A stretch of DNA of 64,000 nucleotides, taken from contig MU004241.1 in assembly GCA_010405405.1 (NCBI GenBank), forward strand, positions 620,001 to 684,000. The letters are read 5' to 3'. Made by a program: the position numbers and the translations under genes. The notes below the pieces were generated by a model. That model did not search any database and was not told the origin of the DNA. It was given only the letters and a program-made list of their open reading frames with translations. Source of the DNA: Microthyrium microscopicum (Eukaryota). This document shows, one piece after another, positions 25,527-60,100 of the stretch (positions within the stretch are counted from its first letter, which is position 1; each line of letters opens with the position of its first letter).

Positions 25527-28500
25527 CTACAATCCCCTCATAAACTCCTCCACGGTAATAGGCCGTCGAACAGCATTCGAATAGCCTTCGTGAAAACTGA
25601 CCCACACGCGATTCACGTCCGACAACACCACAACCTTCGCTTGACGCTCCGCCTCCTCTCCCGTTGGCTCCTTGAACGCGCGTCCAAAGAAGTCTCTCTT
25701 CACCGCTTTTCTATCTCTAGCATCTTGCTCTGCCACCTCTTCGGCCTTGGTCTTCAAGACTTTGCCTTCTACTAAACCTGCACCGATCGTTGAGGAAGCT
25801 CGCTTGATTGCACGCCGACGCCACTCGCCTTCTAGCACTTGTCGTACTGCATAGCGTACTCCTTCGCCTTTGCTCTTCAGCGAGGCAAAGGTACCCAACG
25901 CATCGAGTCCGGGCTCCATACGGTATACCCAGCCGCCTTTGTTGCGTCCATCGTCTTCTACTTTGCTGCGCTCGAATCGTACGCCTGTGGCGGACATGCA
26001 TTCGACTGCGCGATTCACGCGCTCCTTCTCGTCGGCACGGCGGACACTGGCTGTTGGGGCGGAACGTGCACCTGCGCTAGTTGATGTGTGGATGACTACG
26101 GGCTTGACGTCAGGTGCTAGTAGACGTAGCGTATAAGGTAGGAGCTCTGAGGCGATGACATCGCGAGCGCGATAGAGCCGGGCAAGAGGAAGAGATAGGT
26201 TGGATTGTAGGGCGGTAATGGCAGCAGTGTTGGCTTTGAGGGATTCTGAGACGAGGTAGGGCGCTGCTGGGCCGGAGAATGGTGTGGATGGATCGGGCTC
26301 GTCTTTGGTGAATTTGTTGTCGTGAGCGTGGCGTGGCATGGAGCTGGCAAAGAGGTTGTGGAAGGCCAGTATGGAGGAGGAAAGGTAAGGGGCAAGTTCC
26401 CATTCTTGTGAGTGAAATAGTTGAGAGGAGAGGAAGTCGTGGAAGTACAACCATTCGTATGCGGCGTTTGGTTTGCTGAGGAAGTTGTCGTCTTGCATTG
26501 GCTTATCGGGGTAGATGGAGAAGCAATCTGTCTCGTATTAGTAGGGATAGGAAAAGATCTCAATTGACCTGCCTGTTATGATCTTCTCATGCTCTCCGCT
26601 GGCATCAATCATCTCTCTAAGACGACCCATAGCTCTTCGCTTCGCAGCTTCGGTGACTCCTATGACACCGTCCTTTTGAAAGTTATCGGATTTGGCTAAT
26701 GAGTTGTCTGCTGTCTTTGGAAATCCAGCGCCTTCCTGGAAGACACGATCTACTACTTCTTTGGACCCGCCTCGACCAAGACTGCGTGCTGCACCACCTC
26801 CATAGGAGACTTCAGAAAGGATGTTTTCTTCAATCCATTTTTTGGACACACGCGCTGTTGGGTCGACCAGACAAGAGCTACGCCATCGAGCGGCAACCCA
26901 TTCGCCAACAACAAGGACACTTCGGATATCTCCTTCGACAGTTCCACTACGAAACGATTCCTTTTTGCTGCCCACGCCCCATGTTGCCTCACAGAGTCGA
27001 CGAGTGCCATCCAGATCGCAAGCGATGCCTTCACGCTCGAAGATCGAATGAACTCTTGAGACAACCATTTGGAGTGGAGGCTTGCGAACGTGGATGATCT
27101 CGGCAAAAGAACTTTGGCGAAGAGGGCGTAAAGAAGGATGATAAACATCATTACAGATGAGAATCAGAGGTCTGAGTAGTCGGAAGCGATCACCTTTCTT
27201 CTTCTTTTTGGGAGCTCCGGATCCGTCTGACGATGATGTCGAGTTTGAGTTCTTCTGGTCCAAGTTAATGAGATCAATCAGTGCTTTGACGAAGCCACCG
27301 TCTCCTCCAGCGCCGCTTCCACCAACAACGCCGTCAACCTCATCCACAATTACGCAGACTGGTTTTCCAGCTTTGCGACTCTTTTCACCATTTGCAGCAG
27401 TCAGACTGACGCCACGAACATTTTCAGTCCCAACCATATCTCGGATACGACCTTTTACAACTTGACTGCTGCGTTCATCGCTTGCATTGATCTCTTGGAC
27501 TTCATATCCGGCTTGCTTAGCACACACATGGGCCAATGTTGTCTTTCCAAGCCCTGGTGGACCAGTAAGCATCAGTACTTTTCGGTGCTGTTTGGCATCC
27601 TCATCCCATTGGTTGTTACTGTGGTTATGCTTGGGTTTGGTAGACTTTTTCGCTGCTCCTGGAAAAACGATTGGATCCCAGCTCTTTAACCAATGTAAGA
27701 CGGACCGGTGGGTTCTTTCGTCGCCAACAAGATCTGTGAATTTTCGAGCGCGATACTTTTCAGTCCACAATCGAGGTGCCTTGCTGCTCTTTTTCACCGA
27801 GGAAGTTTCTACTGTTGGAACCACTGCCACTGCCTGTCGAATTTGCTCCAGGGCCTCGGCATCCTTCTTCTCTTTCTCAATCTCGTCCATAAGATCATGA
27901 ATCTCAATTCCATAGAAGGATCGAGTCGCTCGTCCAGCTGTTGTCGTCGATCTCGCAGCAATAATTCGTTCATAGGTTTCTGTGACACCCTTACGACGGA
28001 CTCCGATATAATGTTTGCGTCCTGAGAATAATTCCGCGGTCAAGAGTTCGTGGCGCCCTGAAGTCTTAGTTGGCTGGAGGATTGTCGCCTCCTGTTCAAG
28101 AGCATCGATGTCTTCGAAGTCTGTGCAGGTCTGGCCAGCGTTTTTCTCCTGTGTTTCTATATCCAAAGGCTCGCCAGGCTTCGGTGGCGACTTGTGCGTG
28201 TATTCAACCGGCTCTTCATCTTCGTCTTCCGAGTCCTCATCGAGCGCGAATCCTGCAATTGATCGCACATTGTTTGTGATGGGTCTCAAGGGCGAATAAT
28301 CTTGGTCAAGCTTTCTTCGTTTTCTTGACGCGTCTTGGTCCACTACTCCTTGTGTCTCTAAAACAGACATGATAATTCGACGAGTCGTTGGTGGGGATGA
28401 GGTGACTAGGGCAGTTCGTTCTGCTTTGGTAGGCGTCACTTGTATGGGATCAGAACGTGGACTGTGGAAAGATTGCCCAAAGAACTAACCAACAAGATGA

Positions 28501-41263: not shown

Positions 41264-44200
41264 GGGGAGGGTTAGCAAACGAAATCGTGCTCAATTCGTT
41301 TACGTGTTTTCTAGCCAAATCTAGGTTAGGGGCTATTAGCGCTCAAATCTACGAGTATTAAGCAAAAATAATACGTTATATACAAATTTTTCCTATATAC
41401 GTTTTCCTACTATAACGTTGTTATATTTTAATTAGATCTTAACTAAAAAGAGCCCAAAATAGATACTACTAAAGCTAACAATATTAAGATAGCTATTATT
41501 AGTATTTTAGTAATACTAATATATAAGCTTCTTAATAATAAACGATAAGATAAAGAATATAGGCTACTAATTGAATATATATAGTTTAATTAGTATCTTA
41601 AAGATAAGTTAGATTAAATATATAAAGTCAAATATTAGTATATACTATAAGCTTAGATTAAAGTAATATCTATAGTACTAATTAGTATATAATAGATTTA
41701 AGAAGAATAAAATATAATAGCTAGTAGAGATATTTAATCTTAATAACGTCCCTCTTCTATATTAAATTATATTTCTAAATAAAGGCAATTTCCTATTATA
41801 TATAGTATACTATAGGCTTATTAGAATTTATACCTATATTAATATTTATTAATACTTTAGAAGAAGTATTAATTATATAAAGTTCTACTTTAACGCTATA
41901 TTATTATACTTATATAATAAATATATAGAGTTATTATTACGATTCTACTCTCTCCTTATATTATTAAGATATAAGTAATATGCTAAAGCTATTAATTGTA
42001 CTAGTAGTATATATAAATTTTAGAGCTAGATTAATAGAATATATATTAATATTAGTAGGCTAGAAAGCGTCTAAATCTAGTAAGAATTCTATAGTAGTTA
42101 TAAAGGAAACTACTATATAAAAACGCAAGCTATAGCTACGCCTAATAGGATATTACTAGTACTTAATTATAGCTACTTTAGATTCTTAAATAACCTTCTA
42201 ATATTAATTAATTCTAGTCTTAAAGATAGGATTTAATAGATATTTAGTAATAGTCTAAAGAAGCTATTATATAGCGACGTAGCTTATCCTACTAATAATA
42301 TAATTATATCTCTATACTAAGGCATAGAATTACTTCTTTAGTAGTAGAACTTTAATCTATAATAAGCTAATATTTATATTGCTATAGAGTAGATATTTAC
42401 TATTTTAAAGAACTTATAGTAGGGAGAGACGTCTAACTATAGGCGTAATATATAAATAGGATTAATACTTATAGTATATTATTAGACTATATTAGTATTA
42501 TTTTAAAACTATAGAATAGTGTTATAGGGATATAATCTTATTTAGAGTTATTTTAGGGTTTTGCTATTATTAATTAATAAATATTTAAATCTTATAAGTA
42601 TATTTAATATTCTAATGCTATTAAAAGGGAAAGAAGAAGATGATTTAAATAGTATAGAATAATTATAGTATTTATTAAAGATGTTAAAGTTATAGAGTAA
42701 AGTTAGATATTTTTATTAAAGGAAGAAAAGTTAATAAGGTAGGGTTAGCTAATTATTTAATCCTTCTATATACTTTTAAAGCTTTTAGTATCTATTATAA
42801 GATTTATATAAAAACTATATTCTAATACTACTACTAAATTACCTAGAGAATACTAGAATAATCTTACTAATGCCTATTATCTAAAAGACTCTTTAATAAC
42901 TTCTTTATCTTTATTATCTCTAAGTATAATCCTTTTACCTTTTCCTTTAAGCCTATAACTTTACCTCCTTTACTACTACTACTACTACTACTACTACCTA
43001 TAAAATTATTAGCATTACTACTACCCTAATTATTATAATCTCTAAGAGCCTAAATAATTAATTTAGACATCTTTATAATAGTATCTTTTAGTATATAAAT
43101 TTCCCTAGTTCTTTTATACTTTTTCTGCGCTCTTAGAGTTAAAGTAGAAGCCCTTAAAGAGTAAGGAATTACTAGAGGGGTAGGGATACCTATAAGATTT
43201 AGCTATAGGTTATTAGAACTAATATCTTAATGTATTATTACTAATATCTCTTTAGAATTATTAAATAATTCTACAATGTTGCTATTACTATCTAAAAGAA
43301 TATTAATTAATAGGGTACCTTTCTCTAAGAGTCGTTTAGTAAGATTATTATGAGTTATAAAGCTATTATTCTTCTATATCCTTTTAGTTTTAGTAGTAGC
43401 CTTTTTAGCTTTAATAAGGTTATCGTAATAGGTCTATATAGGTTTAAATTAATTAAGCGCCTATCTAAATTCATTATACAGAATATTGTAGCCTAAAGGA
43501 TTTAATCTCTCCTCTATTTACTATAAAATTACTCTCTCTACTACTACTATTATTACTACTTTAGTAGGTCCTTTATCTATTACTAGATTCTTCTTAGTTC
43601 TATATAGGATAGAAACTATATACTACTACTAGATCTTTTATCCTATAAGGGCGTTACTACTAATACTACTATAAGTATTAATCTTCTCTAAATAGTAATA
43701 AAGAGCTATAGTTAATACTAGTGAAGCTTAATCTAGGTGCTACTTCTTACCTCTATTTAAAGAGAGTACTAGCGTTAAAGATACTAGAGTCGTAGGAACT
43801 ATAGGTACTAGTGTAGTAGTAAATGCTTACTATGAAGAGGAGGGTAAATAAGGCTTTAGCTAGCTTTGTAATAGTAATATTAGCGTAAACTAATCTAAAG
43901 ATAGTAGTATAGTACTATTTTGGCGTATATTTCTATATTGTAGTTAGGGCTAGAGATCCTATAGTAGTAATAGTAGTATTTGCTAAGAATTAGCCTTCTA
44001 GCTAAATTCCTATATCTATAATCCTATAATAAAGTTAAAATTAGGATTTTAGCTAATATACGCCTTATTATAGGGTATTTACGTAAGAGCTATCTTATTA
44101 ATATTATAGGCTTTCTTAAATAACTCTAAATACTATAATTCTAGCTATTCTTATAATTCTTACTATTATAGAAGGTACTAAATTAACTCTTCTAGTAAGG

Positions 44201-44565: not shown

Positions 44566-44923
44566 AATCAGCTCAATTTTGGCAACATCTGCCCTTGTTC
44601 CTGCCTCATTTTGTTGGCGCTAACGCCGCATTTGATATTGCTCAGGATGGATGGTACTGATTGAGACACCGCTTCGAAGATCAAGATACCTATCAGTTGC
44701 TATCCCTAAATAATGCAAGCTAGGAAGGTGAGCATGTACTTATTGATCTTTCATTGGCTGAAAGAGAGCACAGACAGTGAAGAGTCTGCAAAACGCACGG
44801 AAAAAGGTTACTCCTATGTCGAAGCCTAGCATGTGCCTAGGAGAAAGGTTGTTCCTTAGTCCGGCTTGGCGAAAGTGAGAGACGTTTAAGCGCATCGCCC
44901 GAGCCCACCACTCCATCCCTCCT

Positions 44924-45166
44924 TAGCTCTCTTTGGTTTGTGTTCCCTCGCCTTCAAGTTTGGATGCAGTTTGCTAACAGTGTGCAGCCTTTTGGCTTAG
45001 ATCAAGTGTAGTATCTGTTCTTACGACCTTAACAGGTCGTACACCTCTACGTGAGGAAGTACAACTGTTAAGCCACTTTTTGCAACCAGCTTGCGCACTC
45101 CCTGGGCTTGCCCATAGTCGCAGGCACTGTGTCCTCTGTATTGCACTGCCTCAGAGTGACGCGAAA
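44924..45166 (+). ncRNA. U2: U2 spliceosomal snRNA containing a 52-nt spliceosomal intron (44936-44987)
   Basis: Spliced AGCTCTCTTTG|CCTTTTGGCTTAGATCAAGTGTAGTATCTGTTCTT matches the fungal U2 5' end. Stems IIa/IIb/IIc, Sm-like ACTTTTTG and stem IV loop TATTGCAC present. Mature size ~190 nt; ends approximate. Confidence 0.93.
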
Positions 45167-46167
45167 TCCTTTTTTTCATTGCAGTCTTTGCCTAGAGCAG
45201 AGATGTGAGGAAGAAATACTTCAACCTTTTATTGAATCGTGGAGGGCGATATTGCTTGATACTGAGTTTTGGTGGTGAATTAGGGACGATGAATTTTGGT
45301 GGTGAAAACTCAAAATCTGTGCGTTTAGCGGGCGCTGTAACAGCGGTCAGGTCTTTCGTTGAACATTCAAGCAGTATCTTGGTACTATCGAACAGTGGAT
45401 AGATGTCTAGTTGCTATATTCTACACTTTCATTGCCATATAGATTGCTCATGAGCGACATGCTGTTGGACAAAGTAAACATTGAATGACAGCAGCCTTTG
45501 GTGATGGGAGCAAAAGTCTTTCGTCAAAACTCTTCGATGGAACATTGAAGTGCCATAGTTCCCATCGCCTTATTCACACTAAATCAGCGTTTTAGATCAT
45601 AGACATCACAGGTGACGGAAAGCGATCAGCTTTTTTGTCCATTTTGGTCAGCAATCTTGAGTGCGAGGGTTGGCTGAAATTTTGGTCCAGCGGTGGTGGG
45701 TACAGCAAATCTACGACGGCATTGCCAGGCGGCATCTGGACTGGCTAGTAGAGCAGATACATCTCATAGCATGATACTTATAGTCTCATAGACTCAAGAT
45801 AGATACGCAGCAAAGCCATCATCCAGAGTCGAACGCAACGCACAGTGATCGCACTCATTAAGGCCCCTCCATCAATATTCAGCACCAGCGCGGAGTAACA
45901 AGCCAGATAGGTAAACATGCAAAATGGCTCTCAGCCACGACTGTAGCTTTATACATCTATAGATTGTGATTTCAAGTATCTATTTGCAATATAAAGTCGC
46001 TCTTCAACAAGCCCACAGCCCTTCGCTATTCGCCAGCTAGGCTCACCTCGGTACAGGCAAAAAATGGATTCATCAACACCAGCAATAGCTCACATGCCAA
46101 TCAGCCGCAGATATCTAGCATCTCCCATCTAACCAGTATCATATCATAATATTCTTATCACTACATA

Positions 46168-57120: not shown

Positions 57121-60100
57121 GGGGAGGGTCAGCAAGGTCATATTCTGCAAATATTTTCTGCTCGTAGATTAGCCAAAAGTAGGTTAGGGGGCGTTAGCGC
57201 GTAGATTAGGGAATATTAAACTAAGAAAACGCGCCTTATACAAATTACCTTCGCAAGGCTTTTTTAACTATAACCCTATCGTATTTTAATTAGATCTTAG
57301 CTAAAAATAGCCTAAAATAGACGCTACTAAAGCTATAGATATTAAGATAGCTACTATTAGTATTTTAGCGTTATTATTAAACTAGCTTTAAGAAGAAGAG
57401 GAATAGGAATAGGATTAAGTAATACTAGCGCGTAATTACTAATTCCCTATAGAATATCCTTTCTATAATTAGAGTCTTAAAGATAAGTTAGATTAAATAT
57501 ATAAGATTAAATATTAGTATACGCTATAGGCTTAAGTTAAAGTAACATCTATAGTACTAATTAGTATATAATAGATTTAAGAAGCATAAAATATAATAGC
57601 TAGCAAAGATAATAGATCTTAAATCTATGCCTCTACCTAATTAAATAATACTACCTAAAAAACTACTATTCCTATTATATATTATATACTACAAATTAGC
57701 TAAAATCTATACCTATAATAATATCTATTAGCACTTTAGAAGAAGTAAAACTTATATAAAGTATTACTTTAATGCTATATTAATCTAGCTTTATAATAAG
57801 TATGCTAATACTTTATTATAATTCTATCCTATCCTTATACTATTAAAATATTTTTAATACTTATAAGCTATAAATTATACTAGTAGCATACTTAAGTTTT
57901 AGGGCTAGATTAATAGAACGTATATTAATATTTTAAGGCTAGAGGGTAACTAAATTTAGTAGTAGTTCTATAGTAGTTATTAAGGAAACTACTATATAAA
58001 AACATAATATATTGCTATACCTAATAGAATATTGCTAGCTATTAATTATAGCTACTTTAGATTCTTAAATAACTCCCTAATGTTAATTAATTCTACTCTT
58101 AAAGATAGAATTTAATAGATGTTTAGTAATAGTCTAAAACTACTCCTTTATAGCAACACTACTTATCTAACGAATAATATAATTATAGCGCTATACTAAG
58201 GCATTAAATTACTACTTTAGTAATATAATTTTAATCTTTAATAGGCGTTCCTTTAAATAAGTATTAAGTAGATATTTATTATTATAAAGAATACGTAGTA
58301 AGGAGGATTATTAGACTATAGGCGTACTATATAGATAAGTTTAATGCCTATAGTATATTATTAAATAGTAGCAATATTATTACAAAACTATAGAATAGCT
58401 TAATAGTAGAAGAATCTCGTAGAGAGCTAATATACTATTAAATTACTAATAATTAATTAATATTTAAATCTAGGTAGTATATTTAATAGTTAAATACTAC
58501 TAGAATTATAGGAATAGGATAATTTAAATAGTATAAGGTAGTTATAATATTAATTAAAGAAGTAGAAGTTATAGAGTAAAGTTAGATAATCTTACTAAAG
58601 GAGAAGAAGTTAATAAAGTAGGGTTAGCTAATTATTTAACCCTTTTATATACTTTTAAAGCTTTTAGTGTCTATTATAAGATTTATATAAAAACTATATT
58701 CTATTTTTACTACTAAATTATATAGAGAATACTAGAATAATCTTATTAACGCCTATTGTTTTAAAGACTTTTTTAATAATTCCTTTATCTCTATTATCTT
58801 TAAGCGTAATCTATTTATCTCTTTTCTTAAACTTATAACTTTATCTCCTTTATTACTACTACTACTACTATTTATATAATTATTAGCACTAGCACTACTT
58901 TGTTTATTTCTATCTCTAAAAGCTTTAATTATTACTTCTAATATCCTTATAATTATATTTAAAGTATTAGAAATCTTTTTACTCTTTTTATACTTTACGC
59001 GTAGACTTAAAGTAGGATTTCTTTACCTTAGAGTTAAAGTTAAAGAACTAACCTATAGAGGGGTAGGAATTTAAGTATTTAAGGTAGGAACTATAGAATT
59101 TAACTACTAGCTACCCTTTTTAAGATTAATTACTAATAGTTCTCTAATAGGAAGATTAAATAATATCTTAATATTGTTATTACTATCTAATATAATATTA
59201 ACTAATAGCGTGCCTTTCTCTAAATACTATTTAGCTATATTATTATATATTTTAAAGCTATCTTCTTTTCTTATCTTCTTAGTATCTATTATTAACTTTT
59301 TCTTACCTATAGCTTTCTTATAGGCTGTTTAAGTAACCTTAAATTAATTAAAAGCTTATTAAAATTTATTAATTAGTATATTATAGCCTAATTTAAGCTA
59401 TTTAACTTTACTAATTCTTTAATGGATTGCTTTCTCTACTATAATCTTATAGGCGTTATAGAAAGGGCTCTCTTTAGTCATAATATTCTTCTTCTTCTTA
59501 AAGAGGTTTAAAATACTCTACTACTAAGTATACTTCTATTTACTAAAGGCGTCTCTACTAATACTACTATAGGTATTAATCTTCTCTAAATAGCAGAATA
59601 CTAGTATTACTAATAGTAGTTATTCCTAGTTTAGGTTAAATTTCTTCTTTTTATTTAAGGGTACTACTACTAGAGCTATAGGGGTAGCTAGTAGTAAGAA
59701 TATAATATCTAGCGTAGTAGGAACTATATACTAGCTCTAGCTCTATAAGTAGGAATTTAGTAATAAATATAGCTCTTACTAGCTCTAGGTAAGTAATATT
59801 AGAGTAAACTAATCTTTATATTATAGTATAGTACTATTTTGGTGTATAGACGTATATTAATCCTAGTTCTAGGTATTTTATAAAGTATATTAAATAATAT
59901 TAGAACTAAGGTCGTAATCTTACGTCTATAATTTTTTAGTAAACTTACTATTATAGTTTTAGCTAACATAAGCTCTAAAGTAAAGAGTTTAGGTAAGAGC
60001 TATCTTATTAATATTATAGGGTACGAGATATAACTCTTTAAACTATAATTCTTACTTAGAATCTAGTAGAGGGTATAGGATTAAGTCCTATAGAGAGGGA

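Follow-up and report, generated by a model that had tools for sequence, protein, structure and literature searches.

A probable spliceosomal intron in stem-loop I of the U2 snRNA gene of Microthyrium microscopicum occupies the same site in environmental U2 loci

Results

A U2 snRNA gene in two parts

The window analysed here, a 64-kb stretch of Microthyrium microscopicum DNA, contains a full-length U2 snRNA gene on the forward strand (44925-45170), made up of a short first exon, a putative 52-nt intron and a second exon that holds the U2 body. Exon 1 (44925-44935, +; AGCTCTCTTTG, 11 nt) represents the 5' end of U2 and provides the 5' strand of stem-loop I, through the G that closes the inner helix. 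Exon 2 (44988-45170, +), which was delimited by the Rfam alignment and by covariation and has an approximate 3' end, supplies the remainder of stem-loop I, the branch-point recognition region, stems IIa and IIb, the Sm site, and stems III and IV. Within this exon, both sequence and Rfam alignment place the branch-point recognition sequence GTAGTA at 45008-45013 (+), and the Sm-site region (A C TTTTT G C; 45075-45083, +) aligns to model positions about 99-107. These functional elements are all intact, as are all of the stems.

When the window was searched with Rfam, RF00004 matched at 44974-45170 (+) over the full model (positions 1-192), scoring 117.6 bits where 46 is the gathering threshold (E 3.7e-23), and this was the sole gathering-level Rfam match across the 64 kb. 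A permissive scan of positions 30000-60000 (E up to 1) revealed nothing encoded in the U2 intron and added nothing relevant, and no tRNAs were found in the 64-kb window. A preliminary description of this DNA had proposed a U2 gene split by an insert, which we could confirm to the base; its gene start at 44924, however, needs to be moved, the likely first base being A44925.

The surrounding DNA is compartmented, with AT-rich blocks (window positions 1-22000, 42001-44000 and 58001-60000; GC 0.18-0.25) adjoining gene-rich DNA with a GC content of 0.45-0.50. In Dothideomycetes this kind of pattern is often ascribed to repeat-induced point mutation. A long ORF at 26538-28439 (-) is 99% identical to a protein of Microthyrium microscopicum, a leaf-litter ascomycete, and its next-nearest matches are from other Dothideomycetes, at 51-64% identity; in a comparison with the protein atlas the CTF18-like ORF matched generic AAA ATPase clusters only.

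Splice signals of the insert and its removal in silico

The universally conserved U2 stretch begins at 44988, directly after an insert of 52 nt (44936-44987, +) that interrupts stem-loop I in its 5' strand, 11 nt into U2. By its splice signals and by the effect of its removal in silico, the insert has the character of a U2-type spliceosomal intron of the GT..AG class. Donor, branch and acceptor were all found as previously described. The 5' splice site, GTTTGT (44936-44941, +), keeps the G at +5 and the T at +6 and is non-consensus at +3 and +4; the branch site, GCTAAC (44973-44978, +), has its branch A at 44977, 10 nt short of the final base of the intron; and the 3' splice site, CAG (44985-44987, +), includes an AG that could pair, in the unspliced RNA, into an AGCC/GGCU hairpin. 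A CTRAY branch is thereby found within 6-36 nt of a YAG (the A being 10 nt from the CAG), 6-36 nt being the branch-acceptor distance that PMC5832005 gives for fungal introns. A further AG at 44979-44980, 2-3 nt past the branch A, is a candidate alternative acceptor that would add 7 nt, and is probably too near the branch A to be used as one.

In the DNA itself, a contiguous 5' end of stem-loop I is absent, and the structure is present only after 44936-44987 has been taken out. The claim that excision restores the U2 5' end was borne out by the in-silico spliced 5' region, in which stem-loop I refolds into its canonical form: a UUUU loop closed by three inner pairs (G-C/C-G), then a small internal loop and three outer pairs. 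In addition, the motif formed by exon 1 plus the donor (AGCTCTCTTTGGTNNGT, allowing at most one mismatch) has a single occurrence in the window, at 44925-44941, where the chance expectation is 0.01, and it was matched in one of 100 shuffled sequences.

The other introns of the same organism that could be consulted are those of a nearby CTF18 gene, for which the annotated protein (P0003) was aligned to the window. They measure 51 and 45 nt, carry the branch motifs CTGAT and CTAAT, and have the donors GTTAGT and GCAGGT, both of which are non-consensus. Since these introns are similar in size and also have non-consensus donors, a 52-nt intron with a non-consensus donor would be normal for Microthyrium microscopicum. 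The second of the CTF18-like introns (26532-26576, -; 45 nt) starts with GCAGGT and would be a GC-AG intron if the annotation is right.

No RNA run of Microthyrium microscopicum with this U2 was found, nor any public run containing at least half of the locus words; 11 public sequencing runs share only 2-3 of the 25 sampled locus words, and we do not take these as evidence. Taken together, the signals, the restored fold and the conservation described below make it very probable that a real and conserved spliceosomal intron interrupts stem-loop I of U2, its splicing being inferred from sequence.

The U2 covariance model absorbs the intron tail

The first 14 bases of the RF00004 match in the window (44974-44987) lie inside the intron, which makes this part of the match an annotation artefact. 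In the alignments of the window and of two of the metagenome loci described below (L016 and L001), the first 12 positions of the model align to the pyrimidine tract of the intron plus its CAG; judging from the start coordinates of their matches, the same misalignment probably affects the other intron-bearing loci. The contiguous alignment obtained in this way has non-standard pairs in stem-loop I. Because the U2 model absorbs the tail of the intron, routine annotation hides the intron and misplaces the 5' end of the gene.

The same site is occupied in environmental U2 genes

The preliminary description had proposed a survey of intron presence beyond this genome. We scanned metagenome contigs for an AG followed by 33 conserved U2 bases, which returned 55 loci from 9 data-set prefixes that belong to about 3 series. 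An identical 11-nt exon 1 followed directly by a donor was found in 47 of these 55 loci, on 38 contigs; as the scan pattern demanded an AG at the site, this figure is the share of AG-bearing matches and not the share of fungal U2 genes. Exon 1 is invariant in the 47 intron-bearing loci, and, with the window added, all 48 genes have the intron inserted at exactly the same base position. Because exon 1 lies outside the search pattern, its invariance counts as independent evidence. Moreover, when Rfam was run on 20 of the 55 loci, all 20 proved to be full-length U2 matches, with scores of 105.6-158.4 bits. A general U2 pattern gave no matches in genome contigs and none in viral contigs, and the 400-nt flanks of the metagenome loci held no credible coding ORFs.

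The splice signals of these genes were likewise conserved. Donors in the 47 metagenome loci are GTACGT (27), GTAAGT (8), GTAAGC (4), GTATGT (3), GTCCGT (3), GTTCGT (1) and GCAAGT (1), so that 46 introns begin with GT and one with GC, and the GTTTGT of the window is both unique and the weakest among the 48 genes. With the window included, the branch reads CTAAC in 26 of 48 genes and CTAAT in 21, with none in L021, while the intron ends in CAG in 44 genes and in TAG in 4. The distance from branch to acceptor is 10-24 nt in 46 of the 47 metagenome loci. There are 33 distinct intron sequences, the one in the window among them, ranging in length from 51 to 83 nt.

As for the remaining eight loci, six (L007, L022, L034, L046, L049 and L050) are intronless U2 genes of another lineage, in which an AAG precedes the CC by chance and a TATAAATA box lies about 30 nt upstream of the 11-nt 5' segment, and a seventh (L028) is cut off by the end of its contig. 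The eighth, L055, is without exon 1 and donor, some 25 nt being deleted by comparison with L021. Some paralogues look damaged in other ways: L021 has lost its branch A (CTAC in place of CTAAC), and L040 has a GC donor. Beside the intronless U2 of L007, a partial tRNA match (RF00005, positions 1-41, -; 31.2 bits) is cut by the contig end.

A second intron was seen in two groups of loci, L008 (identical to L045) and L013 (identical to L019 and L041). It follows base 40 of exon 2, between mature nucleotides 51 and 52, at the junction between the 5' strand of stem IIa and the stem IIa loop, and its signals are a GTATGT donor, a branch of the CTAAC type and, as acceptor, CAG or TAG; its length is 57 nt in L008 and more in L013. 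Rfam matches of the loci that carry it are correspondingly longer, at 250 and 258 nt. In L027, the U2 body is near-identical to those of both groups and intron 1 is present, and intron 2 is precisely absent; U2 genes of these fungi thus do carry removable introns.

Conserved exons and drifting introns

The consensus structure of the in-silico spliced sequences was computed with RNAalifold for 34 non-redundant single-intron genes, the window included. Of 46 predicted stem pairs, 22 showed double-sided compensatory changes, which indicates that the intron-bearing U2 genes are under selection as RNAs. The pairs of stem-loop I were invariant in 34 of 34 spliced sequences. In the window, stem IIa departs from the common form at five of its six predicted pairs, four being changed on both sides with pairing kept and one being an A-C mismatch, and the sixth is unchanged. 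Pairwise identity averages 0.83 in exon 2 (search pattern excluded), compared with 0.67 in the intron and 0.69 in the upstream 50 nt. Exons that are conserved, splice signals that are kept, and intron sequence and length that drift form the pattern of real introns in functional genes.

The U2 bodies of the 47 metagenome genes fall into five clusters at 90% identity and a single cluster at 80%, and the window U2 is an outlier, with 64-71% identity to all of them. The intron site is therefore common to at least two deeply separated lineages; this is the breadth of two deep lineages, short of a kingdom-wide pattern.

Transcription start and promoter

A TATA-like box, TTTAAG (44885-44890, +), lies 40 nt upstream of the likely start and may serve as the promoter. 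Among the 48 intron-bearing genes, strict TATA-type patterns are found 40-56 nt upstream of exon 1 in 24; the other 24 have no strict match, and most of them show, by eye, a AAAAAGGCC-like box at a similar distance (39 distinct upstream sequences). The box is followed by a CT-rich tract that ends in a pyrimidine and then A. Its distance to exon 1 is roughly fixed at 40-56 nt, and its distance to exon 2 varies with the length of the intron. On account of the pyrimidine-then-A context, the TATA spacing and the presence of the 11-nt 5' segment in the intronless loci L007 and L046, A44925 appears to be the first transcribed base, in which case exon 1 would be just 11 nt long.

Further upstream, many metagenome loci have a CACTAGCGCC-like element at about -65, and another subgroup has GTTACCCTGC; downstream of this element come a box, either TATATAA or of the AAAAGGCC type, between -40 and -56, and then the CT-rich tract. 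In this, the upstream elements of the metagenome U2 genes resemble snRNA-type promoters, which combine a proximal element with a TATA box. Inside the intron, a C-rich block follows the donor at about +7 to +25 (window 44942-44960), with the consensus CTTCCC..CCCC..A..ACT.TCAA, and is conserved although the introns otherwise diverge. Measured from the likely start, it lies at about +18 to +35, which is where downstream promoter elements would sit. An alifold analysis of the introns revealed no conserved internal structure except the AGCC/GGCU hairpin and a branch-point stem-loop, and the unspliced 5' region of the window was no stabler than shuffled sequences (-19.7 against a mean of -21.7).

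Alternatives to a spliced, functional gene

Two other readings of the locus have to be weighed against that of a U2 gene with a working intron. If there were no intron, U2 would start within the 52-nt stretch and the 11-mer upstream would be a promoter or initiator element that happens to resemble the U2 5' end. The covariance model does give a full-length match by way of the pyrimidine tract plus CAG, the intron AG does pair into the AGCC/GGCU hairpin, and for 14 of the 33 distinct introns the tail is able to supply a complete set of three outer pairs for stem-loop I. The remaining 19 tails, however, fall short of the full outer helix (17, including that of the window, form two pairs, and 2 form one), whereas the spliced form makes all the outer pairs in all 33. 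Nor would this account explain why an invariant 11-mer, a donor and a properly spaced branch persist across a diverging spacer of 51-83 nt: a promoter element would have no need of splice signals, and an RNA without exon 1 would be without the helix II segment that pairs with U6. We find a contiguous U2 at this locus scarcely credible.

It is also highly improbable, in our judgement, that the locus is a decaying or silent U2 pseudogene in an organism whose working U2 comes from another, perhaps intronless, gene. In favour of such a copy are a donor that is non-consensus and has no counterpart in the other 47 genes, the location of the gene some 1 kb downstream of an AT-rich stretch (42001-44000, GC 0.25) in a window with large tracts of this kind, and the visible damage in some metagenome paralogues (L055, L021 and L040). 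Against decay, the CTF18 introns of the same organism also use non-consensus donors, GTTAGT and GCAGGT; the GTAGTA, the Sm site and all stems are intact; the divergent stem IIa keeps its pairing by paired substitutions, which points to selection on the sequence of this particular lineage; and the 64 kb contain no other U2.

Age of the intron

Several contigs carry 2-4 U2 genes with differing introns, and on one 35-kb contig the paralogues (L001, L006, L047 and L051) have diverged introns at the same site, from which it follows that the intron predates those duplications. A C-rich motif (consensus CTTCCC..CCCC) also recurs behind the donor from intron to intron, and the corresponding position of the window reads GTTCCC..GCC; this shared block hints at common descent or at function, and is not decisive. 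The preliminary description had associated the intron with apparent active intron gain in this genome, a view that the comparison does not bear out: because the same site is occupied in distant U2 genes, whose bodies are 64-71% identical to that of the window, and because the C-rich motif is common to the introns, the intron looks old. In light of these sequence comparisons, it is most likely that the stem-loop I intron is old and was inherited through gene duplications.

A recent, lineage-specific gain would require that the site was hit repeatedly and independently as an insertion hotspot, with reverse splicing into U2 beside the catalytic centre as one conceivable route, instead of being shared by descent. 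Such a history would fit with the low similarity of the window intron to the others, since their mean identity of 0.58 is no better than that of unrelated sequences under the same scoring, and with the observation, in PMC5855946, of numerous separate origins of fungal U6 introns and of their clustering around the catalytic core. It sits poorly with an insertion point that is the same to the base in 48 of 48 genes, with a C-rich motif after the donor that the window has in common with the other introns, and with same-contig paralogues whose introns have diverged in place. We therefore consider a recent gain improbable and retain the reading of an old, inherited intron.

Discussion

How such a gene might be expressed can be outlined from its parts. 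RNA polymerase II would start at A44925, about 40 nt downstream of the TATA-like box, giving a transcript with a capped 11-nt exon 1 followed by the 52-nt intron, which pre-existing spliceosomes would excise. Ligation would join the final G of exon 1 to the initial CC of exon 2, forming the 5' strand of stem-loop I in a mature U2 of about 195 nt, and the ligated RNA would fold into stem-loop I and later unfold to pair with U6. By the established pairing of U2 with U6, exon 1 is essentially the U2 strand of helix II, formed with the 3' region of U6. The start of exon 2 lies a few bases upstream of the strand that forms helix I with the catalytic region of U6. The intron therefore lies between two U6-pairing segments. 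In PMC5855946, the U6 nucleotides that pair with U2 are given as 93-102 for helix II and 55-61 for helix I. An origin by reverse splicing near the catalytic centre is plausible by analogy, and the placement between U6-pairing segments would fit this idea.

Every intron requires U2. The preliminary description had suggested that a U2 gene whose own maturation depends on U2 could be autoregulated in this way. Autoregulation is itself pure conjecture, and if anything a U2-dependent U2 intron would give positive, self-reinforcing feedback and not homeostatic control. A broader proposal, that the stem-loop I intron is ancient and near-obligatory in much of the filamentous fungi, has escaped notice through absorption by the model and is retained for a function, we regard as rather unlikely. 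Were the intron retained for a function, one possibility would be that the C-rich block acts as a downstream promoter element, in analogy with the B box of the S. pombe U6 intron. Another possibility is that obligatory splicing of an 11-nt capped exon could tie the supply of U2 to existing spliceosome activity.

The U2 gene of one basidiomycete yeast, Rhodotorula hasegawae, offers the nearest precedent within the same RNA, as it likewise has a spliceosomal GT..AG intron in a highly conserved part of U2, in a fungus. That intron reportedly lies just downstream of the branch-site recognition sequence. The Microthyrium intron, by contrast, lies upstream of GTAGTA, and its site recurs in 47 environmental loci besides this ascomycete of the Dothideomycetes; in the L008 and L013 groups, the second intron comes nearer than the stem-loop I site to the position reported for Rhodotorula hasegawae. 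PMC5855946 lists introns in U2 (Takahashi 1993) and in U1 and U5 (Takahashi 1996) of this yeast, as well as in many fungal U6 genes, where they are explained by reverse splicing followed by reverse transcription and are concentrated near catalytic-core regions.

The U6 genes of fungi (S. pombe, Tani and Ohshima 1989/1991; Canzler et al. 2016) are a further case of a spliceosomal RNA with canonical introns. They are transcribed by Pol III, however, and their introns occupy many unrelated positions, whereas the U2 described here would be a Pol II snRNA with its intron at one conserved position and behind an exceptionally short capped first exon. Closest in architecture is fungal U3 (Myslinski et al. 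1990; PMC5832005), which is independently transcribed and capped and has a TATA-type promoter, although U3 is nucleolar and U2 spliceosomal. According to the same paper (Canzler et al. 2017, PMC5832005), 133 of 138 U3 introns interrupt the first stem-loop from the 5' end, in its 5' half; they have GT-AG boundaries, RCTRAC as branch motif and CAG as the usual acceptor, they occur widely in Pezizomycotina and Basidiomycota, and their clustered positions suggest a few old gains. The authors knew of no small structured RNAs besides U3 and U6 in which introns are frequent, and U2 may belong beside these two.

Full-text searches of the literature turned up no report of an intron in stem-loop I of U2. 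The parts of a fungal snRNA survey available to us (PMC2396436) do not describe U2 introns, although Figure 1 of that survey flags intron-containing snRNAs and its supplement might list further cases. The stem-loop I site apparently joins a known class of fungal snRNA introns as a member that is unreported and easy to miss. Given that the same split recurs in many environmental loci, it seems to be a genuine trait that has been overlooked, rather than a chance event in one genome. It also carries a warning for annotation, in that Rfam-based pipelines will report such U2 genes as contiguous, with a 5' end about 12-14 nt inside the intron.

Introns in spliceosomal RNAs serve as natural evidence on which segments come close to the catalytic centre and on reverse splicing as a route of intron gain. 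An 11-nt first exon would, in addition, provide a natural test of the minimal capped 5' exon that a spliceosome can use. Finally, where the literature consulted here treats the U2 intron as the curiosity of a single species, a site conserved to the base would make U2 a third family in which the age, loss and gain of such introns can be followed.
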